A DNA stretch of 64,000 bases. Source: a virus (Duplodnaviria > Caudoviricetes). The notes under the pieces were generated by a model. It was not told where the DNA came from. It ran no database searches and worked only from the letters and a program-made list of their open reading frames with translations. Where the stretch lies: IMG/VR virus record IMGVR_UViG_3300021400_000034, positions 64,001 to 128,000 of that record; one strand, written 5' to 3'. Positions within the stretch are counted from its first letter, which is position 1, and each line of letters opens with the position of its first letter. The position numbers and the translations under genes are program-made. Shown here one piece after another: positions 46,777 to 62,764 of the stretch.

Positions 46777-47673
46777 TTAGTCGCCCTGATACTTTGCTGT
46801 TCTATAGAACTCAGATGCGCCAGCCTGGAATGCGTCGTTAGCGTCAGCGCTCTTCTTAACTGCAGCTGCATCTTCTTCGTCGAGGAAGTCGTCAGCGTGT
46901 GCGAACTCGATAGCAGCGGGCATGAAGATGTCCATCGGAATGTACCAAGTGTTTCGGTTCTCGTCGCGGTATCTCTCTAGAGCAGCGCATGCCTTAGCCT
47001 TGCCGTTCGAGTTCTGGGCGAGAATTCTCAGCGCGTCGCTGTTTCCGAGAGTCACTTGCTCGATATTGATCGGAGTCTCGAACCGGAACGAGTCGACGCT
47101 GTTCTCGACTCTCATTGTGATCTTGTAAGGAATCTTGCTTCCGTCTAGCGGCTCAGCGCCAGGAAGGGCATCTTTGATATTCTTCATGAGCTCATCGAAG
47201 TCGTAGAAGTGATCAGCGTACTCGATCTTGACGATTTCGTATCCGTTCGCTACTAGCTTGTCGACAACCTTCCTCTTGTACTCTGGCCAGACTTCTAGGC
47301 ACTTCTTGTAGCGGTTGTAGATGTTCTGATTGTAGCGGCGTATCTCGGCGTCTCGTCCATCGTTCCGCACCTTCTCGTAGTGAGCGTTCGACAGGTAGTA
47401 GAGAGTCTCACGCTCTTTGCGGTCGAACAGGTCCTTGCCTCTTCTGTTAGCCCAGCCAGCGACGTCGTTGACTGCGAAAGGAGCAGCAGCGTCATCTGCT
47501 TTGCGCTTCTCTTCGTCTGTCAGCGGCTTCTTGCTGCGTTCGTATGAGAAGTCAGGGAAAGCGTCGATCAGCCTTCTAGCGGCAGCTTCTTTCTTGGTTC
47601 TGTCGAAAGATCTAGCTTCGGTGATGCTCATGCCGGATCTTCTGATAATTCTTAGCGCTTCGTGTAGTTTCAT
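46777..47673 (-). CDS. putative head-packaged protein
   Basis: Leader MKLHEALRIIRRSGMSITE; GATAAATA at 47687-47694. Confidence 0.75.
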   Translation of the reverse strand: MKLHEALRIIRRSGMSITEARSFDRTKKEAAARRLIDAFPDFSYERSKKPLTDEEKRKADDAAAPFAVNDVAGWANRRGKDLFDRKERETLYYLSNAHYEKVRNDGRDAEIRRYNQNIYNRYKKCLEVWPEYKRKVVDKLVANGYEIVKIEYADHFYDFDELMKNIKDALPGAEPLDGSKIPYKITMRVENSVDSFRFETPINIEQVTLGNSDALRILAQNSNGKAKACAALERYRDENRNTWYIPMDIFMPAAIEFAHADDFLDEEDAAAVKKSADANDAFQAGASEFYRTAKYQGD

Positions 47674-47692: not shown

Positions 47693-48661
47693 TCACCAGA
47701 GACGGAAACGACTTCTACTGCGTCTACCATAGGATTTCTCACCTCCGAGATAGACAGAGTCCCATTCCTTCACGACGTCTCTCTCGAACAGGTTATCCAG
47801 GTAGCTGCCCTTGAATGCGCTATTTCCAGCATAGCTCACAGGTGTCAGCTTCTCTCTGGCGAGCTTCTCTGGATCGAACTTGTACTCGACCCACTTTCCT
47901 TGTCTGTTTCCTTCCTCTACGTCTTTCTTGAGCTTGTTGAAGCCTTCATCCGTTAGATAGTAGAAGTACTTGTGTCTTCCTCCGCCTGGCTCGCAGAGAA
48001 CAATGTGATTTCCCTGAGTCGCTTTGATCGCCGCAGCCTTCTCTTCTCCAGTGTCTTCTAGCTCATCCGTCTGACCGAACTTGTTTAGCTTCAGATAAGG
48101 GAACTTGCTCATCAGCTCTTCGCACTTCGCGAGCCAGATGCCGTGATGACCGTCTTTGCCCATCGACCTCGTCAGAGCGTTCCACCATCTTCTGCTTCTC
48201 GCCATGCCGTAGGCGTTAGCTCCTCTGATGTCTTCTCGGTCGATCTGTTGGTACGCCCACTGGTGAACCATCTCGTGAACTAAGACGTTTCTGAACGTCT
48301 GATAGTTTCGAACGTCTTCGTTTACTCGTATAGCCGAGCAGAATACCTCGTTCTTTCTAGGGTCATAGTCTGACGTGCACTTTCCAAGCGATCCAGACTT
48401 GCTCGGCATAAAGAAGCGTGGTTCTTTCAGCGTCCCTTCGAAGTACTTCTTGTTGAATATGCTCCACTGAACTTTGATGAATCCTGTGCTGACGTCGACT
48501 GGAGCTGCAGGATCAAGCTCTTTAGGTCCCCTAGGATTCTCTGATGAAGATGATGCAGCTTCAGCCTTTCTCTTCTCGCGACGATCCTTAGCTCTCGCTC
48601 TTCTCGCTTCTCTCTGCTCGGGAGTCAATTCTCGCTCAAGAATCATGTCTAGAAGGCTCAT
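47693..48661 (-). CDS. SprT-like zinc metalloprotease
   Basis: FNKKYFEGTL...VLVHEMVHQW (HExxH)...GHHGIW; leader MSLLDMILE. Confidence 0.8.
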   Translation of the reverse strand: MSLLDMILERELTPEQREARRARAKDRREKRKAEAASSSSENPRGPKELDPAAPVDVSTGFIKVQWSIFNKKYFEGTLKEPRFFMPSKSGSLGKCTSDYDPRKNEVFCSAIRVNEDVRNYQTFRNVLVHEMVHQWAYQQIDREDIRGANAYGMARSRRWWNALTRSMGKDGHHGIWLAKCEELMSKFPYLKLNKFGQTDELEDTGEEKAAAIKATQGNHIVLCEPGGGRHKYFYYLTDEGFNKLKKDVEEGNRQGKWVEYKFDPEKLAREKLTPVSYAGNSAFKGSYLDNLFERDVVKEWDSVYLGGEKSYGRRSRSRFRLW

Positions 48662-51127: not shown

Positions 51128-52081
51128 ATGACCTCTGACAAAATCCAAGACATCATCGACCAGAACATCCAGCGTAGGCTGTCGAGCCGAGCGAACCTGC
51201 TCTTCTTGAAGCTCTGCATCAGCTCACTCTCTGAGAAGATCTGGATCGCTGGAAACTCTCTGAACGCTGGCGAGTGCCACGACATCGACGTCTTCTTCCC
51301 TAAGAAAGGCTACGGACTCGGAGGCTGGAACGAGGAAGAGATCGACCTAGACGGAATAGAGAACTGCATCGATGAGTACAACAAAGAGTTCTCCGAGAAG
51401 ATGGGCAAATGCGAGATTCTGCACACGAGCCAGAACGCTATCACGGCCGAGTTCAAAGGAGTCAAGTACCAGTTCTGCAAGTACCAGAAAGAGACGATCC
51501 AGGAGCTCGTCGAATCGTTCGACTACGCTCACATTCAGATCGGGTGCGTGGTTGACTTCGAAGAAGATGGAGAAGAGAACGAGCCCAAGGTCGACGAAGT
51601 CTACTGCACTGACGCTTATCTAGAGGCGCTGTTGACGCACCGGACGTGGTACGTGGGTTCTGACTATCCGCTAGGATCGATCTTCAGAGCAGAGAAGTAC
51701 AAGCGCTACGGCGAGATGCACAGCAGCGAGTACAAGAAGTCCGTCGTGAAGGCTCTCACTGACTTGATACGTCGCGGCTACAAGGACTACCAAGACTTCA
51801 AGGACTCGATCGGCGCAATCGATCTGCTGCTCTTCGACCGCTCTACGTCTGACTGCCTCTTCCACTACTTCGAGGCTTGCGCCGAGCGTGGTCTGGTCGC
51901 TTCGATCAAGTCTGGAGATGAGGAGAAGCTGGACCAGTGGCAGTTCGAATCGATGATGAATGATGAAGAGTTCCAAGATCCGAATATCAACCAAGAGAAG
52001 ACTCTAGACCTAGAAGAGCTCTTCGCTCCACCGAAAGAAGAACCTAAAGAAGAATCTAAAACCGAAGAGAAGAAAGAATGA
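51128..52081 (+). CDS. Pol-beta superfamily nucleotidyltransferase-like protein
   Basis: IWIAGNSL...HDIDVFF; QNAIT; SFDYAH; RAEKYKRYG. Confidence 0.65.
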   Translation: MTSDKIQDIIDQNIQRRLSSRANLLFLKLCISSLSEKIWIAGNSLNAGECHDIDVFFPKKGYGLGGWNEEEIDLDGIENCIDEYNKEFSEKMGKCEILHTSQNAITAEFKGVKYQFCKYQKETIQELVESFDYAHIQIGCVVDFEEDGEENEPKVDEVYCTDAYLEALLTHRTWYVGSDYPLGSIFRAEKYKRYGEMHSSEYKKSVVKALTDLIRRGYKDYQDFKDSIGAIDLLLFDRSTSDCLFHYFEACAERGLVASIKSGDEEKLDQWQFESMMNDEEFQDPNINQEKTLDLEELFAPPKEEPKEESKTEEKKE

Positions 52082-52474: not shown

Positions 52475-53302
52475 TTAGATGAAGTTCTTGATCAGTCCGA
52501 GCTCTTTCGACAGAGTCTTGGATATGTCGTCGAACACAGCAGTGATCTCGCTGTAGTCTTCGAACTTCTCGCCAGTAGCCTGAACAGTGTCGATGAAGTC
52601 TTCGATCTCTTCTACGGCTTCTTGAGCTTCGAAGTTCATAGAGTCGGCCTTCATCTCGCTCTGAAGGTTGAATCTGATGTTCTTTCCGCTAGCCAAGCAG
52701 ACTTCGACGAGCTCATCTGCGAAGTCTCTCAGAGCGTCGTAGATCGCCTCGAAGTGCGTGTGCTGGAATCCGGACTGGCAGCACCAGTGCCAGCAGTGAA
52801 CCTGGTCAGCGAACTGGAGTGACTTTCCAGCCAGCTCATATAGCTCTTCTACGTTAGCCTCTTCGAGATAGCTCTCGTTGATAGCTCTCTTTCCGGATTC
52901 CTTAAGAATCTTCATGGCTTCGTCCATTGACATTTCTTCTTTCATAACTTCCTTCCTATGCTCTCTTAATTTTGTCTTGAGTGAACCGAGATCGTCCACG
53001 AAGAATTTCGTTTCTTGCAGCTTTGACGGATAACCGTAGTAGTGAACTGCATAAATGACGTACTTGTAGCTGAAGTCTCTTATGAATCCGAGCTCGTCTG
53101 GTTTGTCATCGCCTACGTGATTGACTTCCTCCCATGAGCAGAGATTGACAGGGTCTACTCCACGAATTGCCCAGCCTAGACAAGTTAGCTCGAAACCGTC
53201 TCCGTGAAGCTTATTTGATGAGTGAACGGCAGCGACTCCACCGTTGCCCATGCTGTCGACTAGTTTATGTGCTGATTTAAGTGCTGAATCTACAAGACTC
53301 AT
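52475..53302 (-). CDS. two-domain protein with C-terminal Dps/ferritin-like (DUF5856-like) domain
   Basis: QVHCWHW...QHTHFEAIYDALRDFADELVE; internal linker MSMDEAMKILKESGKRAINE; late promoter at 53324-53331. Confidence 0.7.
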   Translation of the reverse strand: MSLVDSALKSAHKLVDSMGNGGVAAVHSSNKLHGDGFELTCLGWAIRGVDPVNLCSWEEVNHVGDDKPDELGFIRDFSYKYVIYAVHYYGYPSKLQETKFFVDDLGSLKTKLREHRKEVMKEEMSMDEAMKILKESGKRAINESYLEEANVEELYELAGKSLQFADQVHCWHWCCQSGFQHTHFEAIYDALRDFADELVEVCLASGKNIRFNLQSEMKADSMNFEAQEAVEEIEDFIDTVQATGEKFEDYSEITAVFDDISKTLSKELGLIKNFI

Positions 53303-53323
53303 TCTCGATTTCCTTATTCTCTT

Positions 53324-53370
53324 TATTTATATCCGCTCGGGTTTACAAAAATATAGAAGTTTCTTATATT
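53324..53370. promoter_or_regulatory. back-to-back late (-) and early (+) promoters
   Basis: TATAAATA (-) 53324-53331; TTTACA-N17-TATATT (+) 53342-53370. Confidence 0.7.
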
Positions 53371-53400
53371 TTCATTGTACAACTCGAAAACGGAGGATCT

Positions 53401-53652
53401 ATGTCCGCTATGAAGTACATTCTCGATAGTGATGTCGATGTTCAAGATCGACTGGGACTGTCGGTTTGTAAAGACCATGTCAAGGTGACTGGAGAATACA
53501 CGTCTGACTCTGTCGCCAAGTTCAAGCTCACCTGGAAGGCTGAGCAGGCTATGAGGAGGGCTCATCGCGGTCGCGTTCCGGTCTTGACTAAGACACACTT
53601 CTACTGCTTTGACGGCAGAGGAACCGCAGAACTAGGAAGAAAGGAGTACTGA
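53401..53652 (+). CDS. hypothetical protein
   Basis: GGAGG RBS before ATG 53401. Confidence 0.65.
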   Translation: MSAMKYILDSDVDVQDRLGLSVCKDHVKVTGEYTSDSVAKFKLTWKAEQAMRRAHRGRVPVLTKTHFYCFDGRGTAELGRKEY

Positions 53653-53969
53653 TGACTTTTGAAGAAGCTAAGCAGACAGCGCTAGACGTGATGAGCGACT
53701 ATCCCGACTGGATCGACGTTACAATTTCATCACAGGAAGGAAAGACGTTCGTCCAGATCATGTATGACAAGTCCCGCAAAGGAAAGCGTGATGAAGATAT
53801 GACGATCTGCGACGAGGGCTGGATAGTCTACAATCAGTGGTACGAGGATCTGAACCTGAAGCCCGTTCGAGGCATTCCTGAGTACTCGGCGCTGATAGGA
53901 ATCGAGCGCGGACATCTATACGAGTTCCTGTGTCGACAGATCGAGATGGTCTCACACATCACATACTAA
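53652..53969 (+). CDS. hypothetical protein (paralog of 52078-52413)
   Basis: MTFEEAK...DYPD...GW...LKPV...FL. Confidence 0.65.
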   Translation: MTFEEAKQTALDVMSDYPDWIDVTISSQEGKTFVQIMYDKSRKGKRDEDMTICDEGWIVYNQWYEDLNLKPVRGIPEYSALIGIERGHLYEFLCRQIEMVSHITY

Positions 53970-53986
53970 AATAAAGGAGACAAAAA

Positions 53987-54394
53987 ATGAAATGGACATA
54001 TAAGTATGAAGCAGAAATGGACACGAATGACGGAGACTATATTTATAAGTCAGGCGAACTTGGTGTCTATGATGACGCTGACATTGAACAGATGAAAGCA
54101 GTACACATGACTATGATGTACTTGAACGCTTATGCAGAGAAGTTTGATGATGGCAATGCAGACGATGATGAAGTAAGAGAGGCATTTGCGGAAAAGTGCA
54201 AGTCTTATGGACTTGAAGAAGCAGACTATAAGAATTTCCACATAGATGGATATCATTACAAACCAAGAGATCCAAACTGCGACAGCAATGCTCACGATCT
54301 GGAATTCTCATTCAAGCGTCTTCCTGCAGATGTCGTAGAACAGAACGTAGATGAGTTCGGCTTGAGACAGTACTACAATGTAAATAGAGGTTAA
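53987..54394 (+). CDS. hypothetical protein
   Basis: AAGGAG RBS. Confidence 0.7.
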   Translation: MKWTYKYEAEMDTNDGDYIYKSGELGVYDDADIEQMKAVHMTMMYLNAYAEKFDDGNADDDEVREAFAEKCKSYGLEEADYKNFHIDGYHYKPRDPNCDSNAHDLEFSFKRLPADVVEQNVDEFGLRQYYNVNRG

Positions 54395-54395
54395 T

Positions 54396-54680
54396 ATGGC
54401 TACCGCAGCAGAAAATGCGAGAAAAGTCCTTAATTCAATCAGATCGAAACTCAAGCTGGATAAGTTTCCTCGTGGAACATTTATCGAAAGTTTTGGTGAG
54501 GATCTCGCATACATCCGATACAACGGTTGTATTGAAGACCGTTTCTCTTCTGGTGAACTGACTGTCGATGAAGCCTATGGACGTGCACAGAAGATAATCG
54601 ACACTTGTGGCGCACCTAAGCTGAACACCTCTGACGATTTCCTTGCTCCAGAAGACCTTCCACCATGCATGTTAGGTTAA
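54396..54680 (+). CDS. hypothetical protein
   Basis: GAGG RBS. Confidence 0.65.
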   Translation: MATAAENARKVLNSIRSKLKLDKFPRGTFIESFGEDLAYIRYNGCIEDRFSSGELTVDEAYGRAQKIIDTCGAPKLNTSDDFLAPEDLPPCMLG

Positions 54681-54694
54681 TCTAGAATTTACGG

Positions 54695-54753
54695 TTTAGA
54701 TTTCTCTCGGATTTACTTATATTTTCTCTGTAACTTCAACAAAGGACCAACTA
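54695..54753 (+). promoter_or_regulatory. early promoter and conserved leader
   Basis: TTTAGA-N17-TATATT; TGTAACTTCAACAAAGGACC. Confidence 0.75.
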
Positions 54754-55932
54754 ATGAGAATTGAGACTAAGTACATACAGTCAGACGCTCTGCGCTGCGG
54801 CATGGATCTCTGCAAGGAGATCAACAAGTTCGGCCATGAAGCTTACGTGGTCGGCGGCTGCGTCCGCGATCTCGTCCGCTGGGGCTTCGGTCAGACTGAC
54901 AAGCCCGAGATCCACGACGTGGACATCGCTACGAACATGCCAATCGATGCGCTGAAGAACTGCTTCCGCACGGAGAGCAACAACGGCGAAGCTCACGGCA
55001 CGATCCTCGTCTTCCACATCTACGGCTATCCGTTCGAAGTGACTCAGTTCCGCAAGGACGGCGCTTACAGCGACGGTCGTCATCCCGACACGGTAGACTT
55101 CACGAGAGACTTCAAGGAAGACGCTGCACGTCGAGACTTTACGATGAATGCTATCGGCATGGACGGTGACGGCAACCTGATCGATCCTTTCGACGGCATT
55201 CACGACATCGACGTCGGCATCGTTCGAGCTGTCGGCGACGCTGACGCACGCTTCAAGGAAGACTCCCTCCGCATCATTCGCGGCATCAGGTTCTCTGTCA
55301 ACTTCGGCTACGAGATCGAAGCTGAGACACAAGCTGCGATGAAGACGAACGCTGCTCTTCTGAACAGTCTCTCTAACGAGAGGGTCCGCAAAGAGATCGC
55401 TGCCGTCAAGAACAAGGACTGCGGCTTCCAGCTCTTCATGAACAAGCTCGGCAAGCTCGACGCGCTGGACAATCATCCTATGTTCGAGTGGATCGACTAC
55501 CACGCTCTTCACGTCGCTGCTCTGCGGTCTAGGGACTTCGGCAAGACTTCTGTCTTCGCTATGATGACTCTCTTCAGCCACCAGAGCGACAGACAAGCTG
55601 AGCTGTGCCTTCTCACGAGAGAAGAGAAGAAGCAAGTGAAGTGGTTCCAGAAGTTCTGGGCTAAGCGCGACGAGATGACGCTGCCTTGGGCAGAGCTCAT
55701 CGAGTTCGTCAAGGGCGACTGGAACACGTTCATCAGCATTCTCGACAATCGAGATCTTCCCGCTTGGGCGAACTACATCCCTCAGGCTATCGCTCTGAGC
55801 AAGATGGAGATCGATCAAGCGGCCATCAGCGGCAAGCTGATGGATGAAGGCTATGAGCCTGGTCCCGTCTTCGGCGACATGGTTCGAGCCGAGATCCAGA
55901 AGATCTACCAACAAGAAGTGGATAAGATGTAA
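54754..55932 (+). CDS. cca: tRNA nucleotidyltransferase (CCA-adding enzyme, class II)
   Basis: VVGGCVRD, DVDIAT, EVTQFR, YSDGRHPD loop, RRDFTMNA, RFKEDSLRIIR, ERV. Confidence 0.9.
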   Translation: MRIETKYIQSDALRCGMDLCKEINKFGHEAYVVGGCVRDLVRWGFGQTDKPEIHDVDIATNMPIDALKNCFRTESNNGEAHGTILVFHIYGYPFEVTQFRKDGAYSDGRHPDTVDFTRDFKEDAARRDFTMNAIGMDGDGNLIDPFDGIHDIDVGIVRAVGDADARFKEDSLRIIRGIRFSVNFGYEIEAETQAAMKTNAALLNSLSNERVRKEIAAVKNKDCGFQLFMNKLGKLDALDNHPMFEWIDYHALHVAALRSRDFGKTSVFAMMTLFSHQSDRQAELCLLTREEKKQVKWFQKFWAKRDEMTLPWAELIEFVKGDWNTFISILDNRDLPAWANYIPQAIALSKMEIDQAAISGKLMDEGYEPGPVFGDMVRAEIQKIYQQEVDKM

Positions 55933-55937
55933 ATAAC

Positions 55938-55978
55938 TTGTTTACAAATTGTTCAGACTTTGTTTAGTCTTTGTTTAG
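55938..55978 (+). repeat. four 8-bp direct repeats at 11-bp period
   Basis: TTGTTTAC, TTGTTCAG, TTGTTTAG, TTGTTTAG at 55938, 55949, 55960, 55971. Confidence 0.65.
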
Positions 55979-55982
55979 GGAC

Positions 55983-56016
55983 AAAAAGAGAGACGGTCTT
56001 CACGGCCGTCTCTTTC
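55983..56016. terminator. bidirectional terminator between convergent genes
   Basis: A-run, AGAGACGGTC-ttcac-GGCCGTCTCT, TT. Confidence 0.7.
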
Positions 56017-56033
56017 TCGTTAGCGGAATTTCA

Positions 56034-56795
56034 TCAGGACTCGTCGTTCTCCTGCTCTTCAAGAAAGCGATCCATCTGCTCAGCGGCTTCCTTCGGCGTG
56101 TAGCCGTCTTTGAAAGCCTGAATGAACTCTCCTCTCCACTCGTCAGTCACATAAGAGTTAGCAGTGACTGGACCGTAGCCGAGCTTTATCATCTCCCTCT
56201 TGCACATGTCCATCCAGTCGCTAGCGTCAGTGTTGCTCTTGTCGACGCGACGACCAGACTCACGGATGATCTCTAGCGCTTCTTCGACTGACATGCTCTC
56301 GTTCTTCTTGCCGAGCAGCTGCTGTCCGATCCGCTCGATGATCTGGTCAGTGTTGAGAGCTCCGTCCTGGACGAGCTTCAAGATGTCGTATCCGCGAGAA
56401 GCCAAGAACTCTTTAGGATCTAGATTCTTGAGACCACATAGAGTCAGAACGACGTGGTCGAACTGAGCCTTCTGGACGCGATCCATAGTCTGGATGCGCT
56501 TGACTGCCTTCTTCTTCTGGAGCGCAGGTGCGCTGTCGACGATCTCGGTAGCGTATCTCTCGAACGACTCGGTCAATCTGTCCCACTTAGAGCAGTTGTC
56601 ACGGATCGAAGAAGCGCAGTCGAACTCGCTCATTCTGTCAGCGTAGAAGTCTCGAATCCAAGACTCCGCATGTTTCATCTTGCTAGGATCGATGACGATT
56701 CCTATAGAGCCTAGAACGTCAAGAACGCGGTTCTTGTAGCTCTTGTAGCTGTCGCCGAAGAATCCTTCGTTGATGCACTCTCCGAATGTTCTCAT
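56034..56795 (-). CDS. putative head-packaged multi-segment protein
   Basis: Leader MRTFGECINE; internal RLTE-S and KKNE-SMSVEEALEIIRESGRR. Confidence 0.7.
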   Translation of the reverse strand: MRTFGECINEGFFGDSYKSYKNRVLDVLGSIGIVIDPSKMKHAESWIRDFYADRMSEFDCASSIRDNCSKWDRLTESFERYATEIVDSAPALQKKKAVKRIQTMDRVQKAQFDHVVLTLCGLKNLDPKEFLASRGYDILKLVQDGALNTDQIIERIGQQLLGKKNESMSVEEALEIIRESGRRVDKSNTDASDWMDMCKREMIKLGYGPVTANSYVTDEWRGEFIQAFKDGYTPKEAAEQMDRFLEEQENDES

Positions 56796-57022
56796 TACTG
56801 ATACTCCCAGTGAAGGTTTCTGATGCCGCCGTCATAGTCGAAAGCGCGGCGGACCGGACGAACCTTCTTCCTCTTGGTCTCTTCGATCTTAGCTCTCACA
56901 GTGCCACGCTTTGCGGGAGCAGCCTTCTTAGGATCAGCCTTCTTCTGAACGGAGTTGAACTCCTTCTCGTACTCTGCGAACATAGCTAGCAGTTCGGGAT
57001 CTTTGATTTCGCTTAAGTCCAT
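56795..57022 (-). CDS. small basic late protein
   Basis: TATAAATA at 57043-57050; GAGG RBS; TAATG coupling. Confidence 0.65.
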   Translation of the reverse strand: MDLSEIKDPELLAMFAEYEKEFNSVQKKADPKKAAPAKRGTVRAKIEETKRKKVRPVRRAFDYDGGIRNLHWEYQ

Positions 57023-57042
57023 GATATTACCTCAGTTTATGT

Positions 57043-57117
57043 TATTTATACTTTATCTATTTAGATTTCTCACGGATTTTCTTATATTTACTGTGTAACT
57101 TCAACAAAGGACCAGCT
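57043..57117. promoter_or_regulatory. back-to-back late (-) promoter and early (+) promoter with conserved leader
   Basis: TATAAATA (-); TTTAGA-N17-TATATT; TGTAACTTCAACAAAGGACC. Confidence 0.75.
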
Positions 57118-57489
57118 ATGAAGAGAATCATCAACACCTCTATCATGAGGAAAGCGTGCCGCATCGAATACAAGACCGAGGACGGCTTCATCACATTGAG
57201 CTTCAATGAAGATCAGACCGAGTACACGATCAGTCCGATCAAGAACAGCGAATACCTGGTTCTGATCCAGACTGAAGGCGCGTCGGAAGGACCTATGACG
57301 GCTGTCCCGTGGTGCGATCCGGTCGACACTTGGCTGAGCGAAGGCCGCTTGTCCATCTACGACGAGAGCCAGATGGACGTAAACACTGTCTTCCTCGCTA
57401 CGATGATGTATGCAGAGCTCCAGAAGCTCAACAAGAAGATGAAGATAGCTAAAGCGGCTGTCGAACTCGGAAAAGCCCTAGAAGTATAA
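57118..57489 (+). CDS. early hypothetical protein
   Basis: Behind conserved leader. Confidence 0.7.
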   Translation: MKRIINTSIMRKACRIEYKTEDGFITLSFNEDQTEYTISPIKNSEYLVLIQTEGASEGPMTAVPWCDPVDTWLSEGRLSIYDESQMDVNTVFLATMMYAELQKLNKKMKIAKAAVELGKALEV

Positions 57490-57512
57490 ATATCCTATAA
57501 AGAGGAATTTAT

Positions 57513-58475
57513 ATGCGGAAACTAATCTCAGAAAAGCGAGAGAGGAAGACTTTCGACACATTCATGACATATCTGATGGATCAGGACGGCAGGTGCTCTG
57601 CTGACGGCGGAGACCACACCTTCTACTGTCTCAAGCTGAACGACGAGAACTTCAGCTTCGACGGCTACGACAAGTTCAAGGAACAGATCGACAAGGAAGG
57701 GCTCTACGACTGGTCCTGGGTCGCAGGTCTGATTCCGAACAAGAACCTGGAAGACGGAAAGGTTCCAGTCAGCTGGCTTCCGATCTTCGGCGATCCTAAC
57801 CGCTATGTAACGAAATGGTTACGTAACGGCACGCCGTCTGGCGCAGTGGAAGAAGTCTTCCGTGACCGCAGAATGAAGATCAAGGACCGCATCGACTACT
57901 TCGCTATTCCAGCAGAAGAGCAGCTGAGCTTGAACGCTCTCAAGGAAGAGCTCGAGAAGATCGGACTTCCTTGCCGCATCAGAAGCCATCACCGCAAGGG
58001 CGACTTCTTGGAGACGAACCTCGAGTTCTCTCAAGAAGCATGCAAGAAGTGGAACGACATTCCCGTCTCGGGCGGCTACAAGATCGTATGGCTCATCCGC
58101 AACAAGTTCGTCATCAACAAGCACAAGTTCAACTCCGTCCAGAAAGTCGTAGACTACTTCAAGGAGAACAAGGATCTCTACGAGATCGCTGAAGCTAAGG
58201 AAACTATCAAGAAGGCTGGAAAGAAGCTCATCAAAGAGTCTAGCTATTCCTTCGAGAAGATGAAGAAGATCACGGAGATCCTCTACGACAACATCGAAGA
58301 GCTGAACTACGACGACGCTCAAGACATCGCAGACTACGTCTCCGAGAAGATGGAATCCGAAGACGTGGACCGTGAGTACGTAGCAGAGACGCTAGAGCAG
58401 ATGCTAGACGACTGCGGCATCCGCATCTCCTTCGACCTGTCTACTCGTCTCGCTAGCAAGATCATAGCGCTATAA
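57513..58475 (+). CDS. putative head-packaged two-segment protein
   Basis: TATAAATA 57485-57492; leader MRKLISE; internal IAEAKETIKKAGKKLIKE-S. Confidence 0.75.
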   Translation: MRKLISEKRERKTFDTFMTYLMDQDGRCSADGGDHTFYCLKLNDENFSFDGYDKFKEQIDKEGLYDWSWVAGLIPNKNLEDGKVPVSWLPIFGDPNRYVTKWLRNGTPSGAVEEVFRDRRMKIKDRIDYFAIPAEEQLSLNALKEELEKIGLPCRIRSHHRKGDFLETNLEFSQEACKKWNDIPVSGGYKIVWLIRNKFVINKHKFNSVQKVVDYFKENKDLYEIAEAKETIKKAGKKLIKESSYSFEKMKKITEILYDNIEELNYDDAQDIADYVSEKMESEDVDREYVAETLEQMLDDCGIRISFDLSTRLASKIIAL

Positions 58476-58495
58476 ATAAGAAAAAGGAATTTGGA

Positions 58496-59458
58496 ATGAA
58501 AAAGTTGACTGAAGCAATGCTTGTTCTAGAACGTTCTGGTCTCCTCATAGAAGCATATCCAGGTGAAGGCTACAAGAAGCCAGTGCTGCAAATGCTTCAA
58601 GAGATCGAAGATAATGACCGAGATCTCGGAAAGCTAGTAGACTTCATAATCAAAGACAAGTGGGGCGACATCCAGAAGGCATTCAACGAAGCGTCAAGCG
58701 AGTTCCGTGAGATCAAGTCAGATACGAGCTGGAAAGGAGATACCTACTACGCTGCTTGGTTCAAAGAAGGATTTGCTCAGAATAGCCGCGATGCTAGAAG
58801 CTACGGAAGATACATATTCTCTAAGGTCAGTAAGTTGGCTGGAATTCCGATCAAGTTCAGCAAAGAAGGCGGCGCTAGAAAGCGTGGATCCTGGACTCAG
58901 GCCTGGTGCATAGACTTCAACATTCTGACGAAGGATGACGGATCTTATGATCTCAGGGCCATCGCTGAAGTAGTAGGAAATGACGACAAGTACTGGGAAA
59001 TCCTCGATGAGCTGTATGCTCACAGGAAGGACCGACATGACTCTCATACTCCGAGCGAAGAGGAGAAGAACATAGAAAGTGCGAGAGAAACAAGTATCAT
59101 TAGAGCTCTCAACAGCATCAGCAGAGCTCCTCTGACAGAGAAAGACTGGGAGAGATTAAAAAGCAGCACAATCGGAAGACAGCTAGGAACGCTAGACAAG
59201 CTGAGCGACGAGAAGCTTAACTCGAGAAAGCACGCTATCCTTCTCATGATGGCTAAGAAGTGTCATGGTGAAATTGGCGAGGAGATCGACTTTGGAGACG
59301 AAGATGTAAGCATTACTAAGGTGAGCAGATTCCTGAGGAGATGCGGAATCTCTATACCTGACGCGCGCACATATAGGGAACTTGGAGATATTATCTTGGA
59401 TCGACTGAGAGAGGTCAAAGATTACTTCAAAGATGAGCTAGAAGTTCTCGATCAGTAA
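58496..59458 (+). CDS. putative head-packaged protein
   Basis: TATAAATA 58471-58478; leader MKKLTEAMLVLERSGLLIE. Confidence 0.75.
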   Translation: MKKLTEAMLVLERSGLLIEAYPGEGYKKPVLQMLQEIEDNDRDLGKLVDFIIKDKWGDIQKAFNEASSEFREIKSDTSWKGDTYYAAWFKEGFAQNSRDARSYGRYIFSKVSKLAGIPIKFSKEGGARKRGSWTQAWCIDFNILTKDDGSYDLRAIAEVVGNDDKYWEILDELYAHRKDRHDSHTPSEEEKNIESARETSIIRALNSISRAPLTEKDWERLKSSTIGRQLGTLDKLSDEKLNSRKHAILLMMAKKCHGEIGEEIDFGDEDVSITKVSRFLRRCGISIPDARTYRELGDIILDRLREVKDYFKDELEVLDQ

Positions 59459-59471
59459 TTAAATCTTTACA

Positions 59472-59504
59472 TTTCCGGTGGTTTTTATAATCGCCGGAAA
59501 TTTT
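59472..59504 (+). terminator. terminator-like hairpin
   Basis: TTTCCGGTG...CGCCGGAAA-TTTT. Confidence 0.55.
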
Positions 59505-59529
59505 GTAGATTTACTGTGGAAGGCTTATA

Positions 59530-59961
59530 ATGAAACCTACATTCAAAGTACTATACGAAGAGTTCAACAAGAACGAGATCCAGTTCGCGAACTGGTTCGA
59601 CTTCAGTCAGTGGTCAGTCATCAAGAGAGAGCTCTCTGGTCTGATCAAGAAATTCAGAAAGCTAGAGAAGCTAGACTTCAAGAAATCCCAGAAGGAAGTG
59701 AAAGAATTCTTCACGAAGAACATGTGGTCGGACGAGTTCAAGAAGTGCAAGAGTCTTGACGAGCTAATCGAGTACTCTATCGAGATGCGACTAGAGCGTC
59801 TCTGCATGTACTACTTCTGGTCTAAGTGCGAATATGAAGTGATCGTGTCTTCCTGGCCTCCACGCGAAGGATCAGAGGAGAAGATCGACATCTACGATCA
59901 GCTCAAAGCGAACTGGGATATATTCAAAGAACTCGTATTCAAAGAGTTGAAGCTCAGATGA
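59530..59961 (+). CDS. conserved-looking phage hypothetical protein
   Basis: YYFWSKCEYEVIV...KIDIYDQL. Confidence 0.75.
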   Translation: MKPTFKVLYEEFNKNEIQFANWFDFSQWSVIKRELSGLIKKFRKLEKLDFKKSQKEVKEFFTKNMWSDEFKKCKSLDELIEYSIEMRLERLCMYYFWSKCEYEVIVSSWPPREGSEEKIDIYDQLKANWDIFKELVFKELKLR

Positions 59962-60701
59962 CGCAAGACGAAAAGAACAAGTTCGACAGTCTGACGGACA
60001 CTTCGTATCTATTCAGACTGATCTTCGAGAGAGCTGGTCTCGATCTCACGTGCATACAGATCGACGGAAAAGACTGCTGGCACTTATACTACAAGACGGC
60101 CATCGTAGGAGCAGTCACGACCAGGCTATGGGAGACAGAGGCTGACTCTTGCACCTTCACGAACCTGCATCTCTACAAGTACTTCACTGACAAGTTTCCG
60201 AAAGTGAAAGACTTCAGGATGTCAGAGTTCTACGAGTACCGAGATGGAAAGCGGGTCAAGTTCTCGTTCGACAAGTTCGAAGACTACACAGACCAGATCA
60301 AGAAGTGCTCAGAGTCGCTGGTGAAGCATGATGAAGATGAAGAAGATCCCGACAATCTAGAGGACGCTATCGCTAGACTGAAGGACTTCTGCGACGAGTT
60401 TGACGAGAAGTTCTCGAACAACACGCTCTTCAAAGACGTGAGGGCGCTGCTGAACGAGAACGAGAGACTTAACAAAAAACTGAAAGAGGTTGACAATGGC
60501 AATGACACTAGAAGAAGCAGTTCAGAAGAGGGAAGAGCTAGTAGCGGAGCAGAGGAAGTATGCTCACGCGATCAAGATTCTGAAGTCGGAGAGCATTCCG
60601 GAGAACGGAGCGATCAAGACAGCGATCGCTCTGTACGAGTCGAAGATCAAGATGATCGACGAGAATCTGAAGGATCTAGCGAATCAGGCTCTGGATGCTG
60701 A
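59958..60701 (+). CDS. hypothetical protein (last about 68 codons overlap next gene)
   Basis: ATGA overlap at start; tail reads through next gene in another frame. Confidence 0.65.
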   Translation: MTQDEKNKFDSLTDTSYLFRLIFERAGLDLTCIQIDGKDCWHLYYKTAIVGAVTTRLWETEADSCTFTNLHLYKYFTDKFPKVKDFRMSEFYEYRDGKRVKFSFDKFEDYTDQIKKCSESLVKHDEDEEDPDNLEDAIARLKDFCDEFDEKFSNNTLFKDVRALLNENERLNKKLKEVDNGNDTRRSSSEEGRASSGAEEVCSRDQDSEVGEHSGERSDQDSDRSVRVEDQDDRRESEGSSESGSGC

Positions 60702-60903
60702 GAAGCCGGAGTGGACTATCGAGTTCAACTTCGAGGGTGAGAGCACTTACATCACTGAGTGCAAGATCGGCATCGAGAAGAACCCAGACAAAGATGATCT
60801 GATGACGTGGGACTCTAAGGAGTCTGCAGAAGAGTTCGCTAAGTGGTACGGGTACAAGCACGGCTGGAAGGTCGTTCCAGTCTCTCAGTACAAGAAGAAG
60901 TAA
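60496..60903 (+). CDS. hypothetical protein
   Basis: GAGG RBS; strong codon bias in this frame. Confidence 0.7.
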   Translation: MAMTLEEAVQKREELVAEQRKYAHAIKILKSESIPENGAIKTAIALYESKIKMIDENLKDLANQALDAEKPEWTIEFNFEGESTYITECKIGIEKNPDKDDLMTWDSKESAEEFAKWYGYKHGWKVVPVSQYKKK

Positions 60904-60906
60904 TCG

Positions 60907-61824
60907 ATGAAGCTGTTCGTAATCTCCGACATACACACGGACGTCTGGTTTCCTTATGCGGTAGAGAAAGACCGCTGGAAGCTCGATGATCCTCCTGAGT
61001 CAGCATCGAGGGACACGCTCGAGCACATCTGGAAGATGTACGAATATCCTCTAGACGTGGACGCTATCTTGGTGGCCGGAGACATAGCGAACGACTATCT
61101 GACGACGACATACACGCTCAAGTGGCTGTCGGAGAAGTACAAGAAGGTCTACTTCGTCGTCGGAAATCACGAGTTGTGCGTACGTGGAGGAACTCCGAGC
61201 AAGAGCAACCTGCAGTTCTTGAACAGCTACGAGAAAGTGACTAACCTGGGACGCTACGCTGACTCCCTAGGAAACTGCTATCTCCTCGACGCGTCGATGC
61301 GCGACGGAATCGCTGGGACTATGGGCTTCGCCGACTTCAAGTGCTGCTGCTACGACGTCGCCTCAGAAGTCAGAATGAAGCTCGCTTGGCGAAGGTCATG
61401 GTTTGACGGGAATCACTGGAAGCTGCACAGCATGAATCCTGACGACATCTGGGAGTCAGAGAGGGTCCGCATGCACGATCTGATCGGCGGAAAGCCAAAG
61501 GTGCTAGTAACTCACTTCACGCCTATTCAGCTCGGGATCACCTTCGACGCTAGGAACGATCCAGGAAACGCTTTCTTCTTTTTCGACGCTAAAGAGTTCT
61601 TGGAGGAGTTCGAAGAGGACGCTTATTGGGTGTGCGGGCATACGCACTACCACTATAAGGCAGTATACACGAACGCTAAAGGAGCCAAAGTCACTATCCT
61701 GTGTAACCCGAACGGCTATCCAGACAGCTCCCATACAGCGCTCTATGCGCCGAGCGAGAAGCGTCCTAAGACTGCGACATCGATAGGTCTGACTGAAAAC
61801 GAGCACTTCATCATCGAGATATAA
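60907..61824 (+). CDS. calcineurin-like metallophosphoesterase
   Basis: ISDIH, AGDI, GNHE, VTH, CGHTH, NPNGY. Confidence 0.9.
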   Translation: MKLFVISDIHTDVWFPYAVEKDRWKLDDPPESASRDTLEHIWKMYEYPLDVDAILVAGDIANDYLTTTYTLKWLSEKYKKVYFVVGNHELCVRGGTPSKSNLQFLNSYEKVTNLGRYADSLGNCYLLDASMRDGIAGTMGFADFKCCCYDVASEVRMKLAWRRSWFDGNHWKLHSMNPDDIWESERVRMHDLIGGKPKVLVTHFTPIQLGITFDARNDPGNAFFFFDAKEFLEEFEEDAYWVCGHTHYHYKAVYTNAKGAKVTILCNPNGYPDSSHTALYAPSEKRPKTATSIGLTENEHFIIEI

Positions 61825-61858
61825 ATAAAGAGAATAACATTCAAGGAGTTTTTCTAAG

Positions 61859-62764
61859 ATGACTACTGAAAACGAAAACATCAAGGACGAAGAGCTGAAC
61901 GAAGCTGAGCTCAGCGACGTGAAGAACTCGATCGCCTCTCTCTGCAAGAAGTACCTCACTGGCTCGTTCTTCGACAAGCTGGTCGACACGAGTGGAATCA
62001 AGATCGCCAAGGACATCCTTCTCGGCGACCTGAAGAACATGATCGGCAAGGGCACTTCTGGTCCTGCAGCTAAGAAGTTCGCTATCGCTATCCAGATGGC
62101 TAAGAATCCTGTGGCAGTCGACACTATCATGTCGAACTACATGCTCAAGGGCGACGGCATGGGATCTGGCATCGGCTACAGCGAGTCTGCCGAGATTCAG
62201 GGATTCCGCGAGTATCTCACTGAAGCCAAGAAGGGCGGATGCTGCGGCGGAAAGAAGAAGCCGTCCGAAGAAGAGATCGAAGAAGCTATCAAGGTCGTGG
62301 AGGCTGAAGGCTACAAAGTCAGCCGCATCGAAGAGTCCAAGGAAGACAAGAGCTTCGTCACCGAAGAAGAGATCGAGAAGGCTAAGAAGCTCGTCGAGTC
62401 TCGCGGATTCAAGGTTCGCGAGAAGAGAGTCAACGAGTCCGAAGAGGAATACCTGGTCTTGGAGATCCCAGCTGACAAGCTCGGATTCGACGTCGACGAA
62501 GTAGAGACTCTCATCGAGATTGCTATGAGCGACAGATCAGTTCCGACCTATCTGCGAAACAGCGTCGAGCACATTTCTACTGATCACGACGACGGAACAG
62601 TACATGTTATGGTCTACGATGCAGAAGACGCTGAAGAGGCTAAGGAAACGATCATCAAGCTGATCGACGCATTACTGGAGAACGCTACGGGCATCGAAGC
62701 CGAGATCTCCGAAGATCTTCTCGACAACTACAGAAACCTCATCGACAAGGCTGTAGAAGTCTAA
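61859..62764 (+). CDS. acidic putative head-packaged/core polyprotein
   Basis: TATAAATA 61820-61827; FREYLTE-A and two EEIE[EK]Axx[VL]VExxG[YF]KV...E-S repeats. Confidence 0.75.
   Translation: MTTENENIKDEELNEAELSDVKNSIASLCKKYLTGSFFDKLVDTSGIKIAKDILLGDLKNMIGKGTSGPAAKKFAIAIQMAKNPVAVDTIMSNYMLKGDGMGSGIGYSESAEIQGFREYLTEAKKGGCCGGKKKPSEEEIEEAIKVVEAEGYKVSRIEESKEDKSFVTEEEIEKAKKLVESRGFKVREKRVNESEEEYLVLEIPADKLGFDVDEVETLIEIAMSDRSVPTYLRNSVEHISTDHDDGTVHVMVYDAEDAEEAKETIIKLIDALLENATGIEAEISEDLLDNYRNLIDKAVEV

Follow-up and report, generated by a model that had tools for sequence, protein, structure and literature searches.

The stretch of DNA analysed here, called the window below, comprises 64,000 nucleotides and corresponds to bases 64001-128000 of a single phage contig of 243,336 bp with terminal repeats. 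Its source is a deep-branching, uncultured, giant T4-like phage (jumbo phage) of the rumen. Several genes of the window encode proteins with a common module of ~20 residues, which is found at N-termini and also internally, between domains (Table 1). An earlier note on this DNA had placed internal copies of the module in four genes, and all four genes and the five copies were located where it had put them. Comparative sequence evidence for domain shuffling at the module is the strongest result of the analysis. Since the same peptide begins many late proteins and has the cutting motif of the head protease, the proteins joined by this linker are probably capsid-loaded multi-part proteins that are cut apart by the head protease.

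Table 1 Module-bearing genes, module copies and late promoters of the window (window coordinates; aa, amino acids; nt, nucleotides)
Feature	Position	Strand	Description
P0001	52475..53302	-	275 aa: N-domain without known family, module, Dps/ferritin-like DUF5856 domain
P0001 internal module	52871..52933	-	aa 124-144, MSMDEAMKILKESGKRAINE|S
P0002	56034..56795	-	253 aa: 'EGFF' N-domain, module, 65-aa C-segment
P0002 internal module	56232..56294	-	aa 168-188
P0003	57513..58475	+	320 aa: leader MRKLISE|K, 215-aa core domain, module, 78-aa C-domain
P0003 internal module	58179..58241	+	aa 223-243, end LIKE|S
P0004	61859..62764	+	301 aa: helical N-domain, Cys/Lys patch, two modules, hypervariable alpha/beta C-domain
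P0004 module 1	62270..62335	+	aa 138-159, end RIEE|S
P0004 module 2	62366..62437	+	aa 170-193, end VNE|S
P0005 N-terminal module	58496..58552	+	MKKLTEAMLVLERSGLLIE|A
P0007 N-terminal module	47617..47673	-	MKLHEALRIIRRSGMSITE|A
Late promoter TATAAATA (T4-type)	53324..53331	-	22 nt upstream of P0001
Late promoter TATAAATA	57043..57050	-	upstream of two-gene unit: 75-aa open reading frame + P0002
Late promoter TATAAATA	57485..57492	+	upstream of P0003
Late promoter TATAAATA	58471..58478	+	upstream of P0005
Late promoter TATAAATA	61820..61827	+	upstream of P0004

A recurrent module in late genes

A 21-column profile was made from module copies and searched against the 701 six-frame open reading frames (ORFs) of the window. 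In the window, it picked only the five internal copies and the N-terminal copies of P0005 (58496) and P0007 (47673). On the seed profile the independent E-values (i-E) of the window copies ranged from 1e-8 to 4e-6, with the exception of the P0007 copy, for which the first seed profile gave 0.012 and the iterated whole-genome profile 1.3e-6. The next unrelated match in the window had an E-value above 0.3, leaving a clear gap to the noise. When the iterated profile was applied to the whole genome, 15 copies in 12 ORFs were obtained. N-terminal copies were present in eight ORFs, at or not more than ~15 residues from the N-terminus, the gene at genome position 222125 having two in tandem; the five internal copies are distributed over four ORFs, and one ORF (genome 55978-56574) has a copy at its extreme C-terminus. 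Codon usage differs between the copies, and their likeness is thus kept at the protein level.

To describe the module, 181 distinct modules were collected from this genome, its 248-kb relative G001 and ~200 metagenomic homologues. Their consensus reads E-[EQ]-I-x-E-A-[IK]-K-[IV]-[VI]-[EK]-x-x-G-[YFK]-[KR]-V-[VI]-x-E and describes an amphipathic helix, a Gly and a short strand, after which [ILVM]-x-Glu follows. The helix half has the pattern x-x-h-x-E-A-h-x-h-h-[EK] (h, hydrophobic), its hydrophobic positions being spaced i, i+3, i+4, i+7 as in an amphipathic helix with the small Ala central on the hydrophobic face; then come the Gly and the strand [YFK]-[KR]-V-[VI]. The Ala is invariant (181 of 181, partly through selection by the profile), and the Gly is present in 176 of the 181 modules. 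The ends of the N-terminal copies are LIE|A, ITE|A, VIKE|Y or IAE|K.

Known families gave little orientation. Excised modules had sub-threshold matches only in Pfam, to assorted alpha-beta units (SHOCT-like, PASTA, RraB, PepSY), and in most module-bearing proteins nothing was recognised by Pfam and PHROGs. HicA-like and L7/L12-like N-terminal alpha-beta units, considered as candidates, were rejected since the remainder of these folds is absent. The segments flanking the modules have no paralogues elsewhere in the genome. Among the GenBank phages of INPHARED, no match was found for the DNA between 52 and 63 kb and no protein match for P0002 and P0004.

Judged by their promoter motifs, the module genes appear to belong to the late expression class. 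The T4 late-promoter consensus TATAAATA occurs 11 times in the window, versus 0.85 expected. Over the whole genome, an exact copy lies within 60 nt upstream of 8 of 13 module genes; of the 299 other genes, 27 have one (Fisher p = 1e-5). Two further module genes have GATAAATA, two are situated in the protease operon, and P0002 follows a small promoter-bearing gene; each of the 13 module genes belongs to a unit whose promoter is of the T4 late type or closely similar to it.

Domain exchange at the module

According to the earlier note, genes fuse through this linker in a modular system, and the architectures of the homologues and the structure models bear this out. In the ~200 metagenomic homologues domains were gained, lost or exchanged exactly at the module, which is present in 1-4 copies. 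The same segments recur with other partners, with extra cassettes or with one segment missing, and the breaks always lie at the module.

The P0004 family (119 homologues) combines a conserved N-domain and 1-4 tandem modules with a highly variable C-domain. In P0028, P0030, P0032 and P0027 the N-domain is 98-100% identical to that of P0004, while the C-domain gave no BLAST hit or only 27-38% identity. An extra cassette of ~98 aa follows RLEE|SKED in P0030 and P0046 and has its own end, ELEE|SKKE. Likewise, P0071 differs from P0070 by a ~150-aa cassette which starts directly after GFRVVNE and again ends in GFRVVNE, and in P0093 and P0104 an additional 135-aa domain is joined at ELNE|AELS. With N-domains 98-100% identical beside C-domains that are 0-37% identical, the C-terminal end of this family looks like a product of mosaic or diversifying evolution, as in arms-race proteins. 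The C-domains of the family (P0020-P0138), however divergent, all end in a similar G-x-EAE-x-GE-D-x-x-D motif. A Cys/Lys-rich patch, KKGGCCGGKKKP (window 62228-62263; P0004 aa 124-135), directly precedes the modules of P0004, and distant homologues of the family retain patches resembling it (GCC, CCGG, runs of K).

In the P0003 family (57 homologues), most members begin with an N-terminal module, MSEFDEAKKLLESTGHLVVE|K. Compared with G001 (locus L009, 14932-13913), the leader of P0003 itself (window 57513-57536) is 13 codons shorter and consists of MRKLISE|K only, with the internal module kept. Other members have the form X-module-core-module-C (P0148), X-module-C without the core (P0194, P0195), core-module-105-aa insert-C (P0139-141, P0162) or an unrelated C-domain (P0174, P0177, P0178). 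Where a junction of this family has no helix, FLNE|A, LISE|A or LLE|A is nevertheless present, and GKKLIKE is its best-conserved stretch. In the P0002 family, the 75-residue 'EGFF' domain has the module in front in P0214, P0215 and P0217 and behind in P0204, P0205 and P0219-221, and the module stands at the very C-terminus in P0222. P0212 consists of the module and the C-segment of this family; it may be a truncated gene call, and scans of viral and metagenome sequences gave fused forms only. Scans of viral contigs with P0004 and P0207 found nothing.

In orthologues the module is conserved above the level of its flanks. The internal module of P0001 is kept in two relatives at 72-73% identity, and the module helix of P0002 is identical at 12 of 14 positions in an orthologue whose overall identity is only 48%. 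Since the module is short, rich in common residues and weakly similar to many Pfam alpha-beta families, its copies might be alike by chance or composition, as Glu/Lys-rich helical segments with no common function. This explanation is excluded for practical purposes: the profile i-E values (1e-8 to 1e-5) are clearly apart from the noise, the Ala and the Gly are kept as stated above, orthologues conserve the module beyond its flanks, and it recurs at homologous junctions in ~200 proteins.

Several internal copies still begin with Met, and we read the internal copies as former leaders trapped by in-frame fusion. Alternatively, the Met-starting copies (P0001 M124, P0002 M168) could be internal translation starts, from which a nested, leader-bearing short protein would be made in addition to the long one, as in nested head genes elsewhere. 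The Met at the start of the internal module is kept in divergent homologues of P0001 and P0002, a purine-rich sequence lies ahead of P0001 M124, and P0212 is exactly module plus C-segment. Against this, Met is missing from the internal modules of P0003 and P0004, and whereas a strong GAGG-type ribosome-binding site stands ahead of every N-terminal copy, the internal Met codons have no such site. Internal starts would also leave the tandem copies and the cassette boundaries unexplained, and we consider them very improbable as the origin of the pattern.

Predicted structures and a cleavage-type motif

The copies had also been suggested to separate segments of different character, and the predicted structures agree with this. 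The AlphaFold model of P0004, based on an alignment of 55 sequences, shows a helical N-domain (aa 15-98), a stretch without order, the helices of the two modules, each standing isolated (aa 137-149 and 169-181), and a confident alpha/beta C-domain (aa 198-300) with a predicted local distance difference test score (pLDDT) of 85-93. The sites IEE|S and VNE|S are in the two segments with pLDDT<50 (aa 157-166 and 190-195). In the P0001 model, the C-half is a confident ferritin-like four-helix bundle of the DUF5856/Dps-like type (aa 151-273), and the module helix (aa 126-135), modelled with low confidence, is not part of it; the N-domain was poorly modelled because the alignment was shallow. Homologues of the P0001 C-half that consist of DUF5856 alone (147 aa, ~42% identical) have no module. 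Thus, as judged from both models and from the module-free homologues, the linker is not an integral part of a domain core. In Foldseek searches of the PDB and BFVD the P0004 model had no match at E <= 0.001, and there was no usable match for P0003 and P0004 in the ESM Atlas.

[ILVM]-x-E follows directly after the strand in 92% of the 181 modules, versus 18% in random 11-residue windows drawn from these proteins, for which 200 resamplings gave at most 26%, and every junction type seen (at least a dozen) has [ILVM]-x-Glu within a few residues. The post-strand Glu is found at module column 19, 20, 22 or 25, and this shift argues for selection on the motif, not on one column. Two further hot positions of the motif have their Glu at column 5, after which the invariant Ala follows, and at column 11 or 12. 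The density of the motif is accordingly 2.6 per 28 residues in the module and 0.73 elsewhere, and the approximately three [ILVM]-x-Glu sites per module match the P3-P1 rule of T4-type prohead proteases.

The module could, on the other hand, be an uncut helix-Gly-strand element which docks onto a common partner, self-associates in a SHOCT-like manner or acts as a semi-rigid spacer, the proteins being active at full length, whether in the virion or not. The best-conserved parts, the helix with its invariant Ala and the Gly, would suit such an element, as would the tight tandem arrays of 1-4 copies with a 20-residue period, which resemble a repeat or avidity element and whose inner units often have no perfect post-strand site. 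An h-x-E motif in an acidic amphipathic helix can moreover result from the helix pattern alone, and confirmed head proteins have no module (see below). SHOCT and SHOCT-like domains (PF09851, PF22746) are likewise short helix-Gly-strand units at protein ends, and a SHOCT-like family was weakly matched besides the other sub-threshold alpha-beta matches. However, this match to PF22746 stayed, with 17.4 bits (14.2 for the module when excised), below the cut-off of 27 and was obtained with only one of the seven window copies, and the conserved E-A signature is not common to SHOCT and the module. A terminal 'linker' joins nothing, yet the majority of copies is terminal, and the AlphaFold model contains no packed mini-domain. 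In addition, the high frequency of the post-strand site at a shifting position points to selection on the motif, inserted cassettes come with their own h-x-E end, and junctions without a helix retain h-x-E (e.g. FLNE|A, MRKLISE|K). Considering both sides, we regard an uncut element as an unlikely but serious alternative to cleavage.

Head genes, proposed prohead processing and known systems

The machinery for T4-type head maturation is encoded in the genome. A prohead protease of family Peptidase_S77 (PF03420) is encoded at genome 55275-55964 (match at 55335-55778, E 2.3e-31, above cut-off) and a T4-type Gp23 major capsid protein at genome 195010-196344 (E 5e-60); a T4-type portal (E 5e-69) and a scaffold (phrog_237, E 6e-11) are also present. 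The capsid protein is only ~30% identical to those of cultured T4-like phages and cyanophages. Its N-terminus reads MKILNSQKTITE|A, and that of the protease MAEHKKLLNE|A. The protease has the N-terminal sequence KKxLLNE[AD][YF]LSD in common with an acidic late protein of 308 aa (genome 220680-221606), whose gene directly precedes the one at genome 222125; the latter encodes an acidic protein of 136 aa in which the module stands twice in tandem. These two genes may form a second prohead-core gene cluster.

Module genes are also neighbours of the protease gene. Directly after it lies the 198-aa ORF with the C-terminal module (genome 55978-56574) and, past one small gene, a 150-aa ORF with an N-terminal module (genome 57042). 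The 150-aa gene has the same place in G001; the 198-aa ORF is absent from the corresponding G001 place. In the more distant IMGVR_UViG_3300028797_000108, whose protease is 48% identical, both genes right after the protease gene begin with the module, the first of them encoding it in fusion with a P0002 N-domain homologue (E 6e-15). G001 lacks 6 of the 13 module genes despite a near-identical protease and has one that is not present in this genome, a turnover resembling that of T4 internal-protein loci (PMC9026906).

Of the known systems, the T4 capsid targeting sequence (CTS) comes closest. Its 10 residues, MKTYQEFIAE, load any fused protein into the capsid and are cut after Glu (PMC8442874, PMC9026906); with Asp instead, T4 processing is blocked and targeting is not (PMC9026906). 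It is present on the internal proteins IPI-III and on Alt and is removed by the prohead protease gp21 (PMC9026906, PMC8442874, PMC5694885). Like the module, the CTS is a short amphipathic leader of late, otherwise unrelated proteins with fast turnover, and it ends in [I/L]-x-Glu; a gp21-type (S77) protease is encoded here as well, and the fusion of a leader to any protein is a known T4 principle. In contrast to the CTS, the module also occupies inter-domain positions, forms tandem arrays and occurs at a C-terminus, and it adds a Gly-strand part and has two or three copies of the motif. By this analogy, the module may be the counterpart of the CTS in this lineage, a portable address and cut site processed by the S77 protease in the prohead, a proposal for and against which we find the case evenly balanced.

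The mechanism that we envisage would proceed as follows. The amphipathic helix would dock a protein onto the prohead core, the module acting as a leader when it stands at the N-terminus. In-frame fusion of a leader-bearing gene or cassette to the end of another domain would turn the leader into an internal joint. Inside the prohead, the S77 protease would degrade the joints, and the domains would be released as separate head-internal, probably injected, proteins. The role of the module-linked domains as 'cargo' is one that we infer. That the proteins are cut into separate mature proteins in the prohead, as the earlier note had proposed, is plausible from the motif match, the late promoters, the presence of the S77 protease and the adjacency to its gene, and we would give it an even chance. 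Several sites per propeptide are known from T4-type and phiKZ-type maturation, where small fragments can exit the head (PMC9026906, PMC5694885).

A number of observations weigh against processing by the head protease. Two of the three motif positions are inside the amphipathic helix, which is rich in Glu and whose periodicity could by itself give rise to h-x-E, and the 181 modules are related sequences rather than independent events, found by a profile that covers part of the motif. The P0002 copy has no post-strand site (RRVDKS), and this stretch is not conserved. Inside domains [ILVM]-x-E is not depleted (observed/expected 0.92 versus 1.08), which gives no clear signal. The confirmed head proteins, i.e. 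the major capsid protein, the scaffold and the protease, have short h-x-E leaders without the module, and late promoters drive non-virion genes too. With ~20 residues the module is twice as long as the CTS, and no profile links it to MKTYQEFIAE: only the pattern of an amphipathic stretch that ends in h-x-E is common to both, ten residues being too few for statistics. A complex prediction for the scaffold, the protease and the two-module stretch of P0004 had a score of 0.00 and is evidence neither for nor against.

Two other systems resemble the one proposed here in part. In phiKZ, 201phi2-1 and SPN3US, an S80 protease cuts after Glu at S/A-x-E (PMC5694885, PMC10052503, PMC9026906); many head-internal proteins are cut there after Glu, and redundant propeptide sites let small fragments leave the head. 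The protease encoded here belongs to S77, not S80, and P3 of the sites is I, L, V or M instead of A or S. Moreover, the phiKZ-type proteins have long propeptides rather than a shared portable module, and cassette shuffling at their sites has not been described. Polyvalent proteins, known from phages and conjugative elements (Iyer et al. 2017, PMC5512222), are multi-domain proteins too, combinatorially shuffled, encoded among late or virion genes, predicted to be packaged and delivered with the DNA and sometimes processed. Unlike the proteins of 250-450 aa studied here, they are large, with 2-15 known effector domains and often a metallopeptidase of their own for self-processing. In P0001-P0004 no peptidase domain was found and only the Dps-like DUF5856 domain of P0001 was recognised, nearly all domains being without known family, and the joints match the head protease rule.

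Capsid targeting by the CTS, multi-site processing in giant phages and packaged polyvalent proteins (PMC5512222) are thus already known, whereas our literature search found no paper on a leader common to several proteins which also serves as internal joint and as point of domain exchange. A more far-reaching reading, to which we give somewhat less than an even chance, is that this deep-branching T4-like jumbo clade uses a single 20-residue 'address and self-destruct' module that works anywhere in the chain, that cargo is gained by splicing in cassettes at the module, and that the protease turns one gene into several injected proteins. If this were true, T4-like capsid targeting would extend beyond a 10-residue N-terminal tag to a modular grammar of leaders, joints and tandem arrays, by which phages could assemble, reshuffle and deliver sets of small proteins. 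Dozens of unknown domains in uncultured gut and rumen jumbo phages would become candidate injected effectors, e.g. a Dps-like DNA binder and a SprT-like protease, and the hypervariable ends beside near-identical N-domains would be explained. The module would then be available as a second tag, perhaps independent of position, with which phage capsids could be loaded with proteins, a natural plug-and-play counterpart of the engineered T4 CTS fusions, and it would provide a route to fast effector turnover.

Some further features of the region were recorded. Genes for a tRNA nucleotidyltransferase (CCA-adding/poly(A) polymerase family; window 54754-55932, +) and a calcineurin-like metallophosphoesterase (window 60907-61824, +) sit amid the late module-bearing genes, both without a module. 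P0010 (window 59958-60701, +) has a long Ser/Asp/Glu/Arg-rich low-complexity tail (aa ~185-247), which is missing in the G001 orthologue, ending at ~199 aa. A second shared motif, the Arg-rich helix TPEQ-x-ARRR-x-AK-x-RR, follows several leaders. It is found in the SprT-like metalloprotease P0009 (MSLLDMILE|RELTPEQREARRARAK..., aa 1-35; window 47693-48661, -) and, outside the window, at genome 57042, 128805, 144643 and 51130-52077; three module-bearing proteins contain it, and one occurrence is internal. This motif may be a DNA-binding or a second targeting element.

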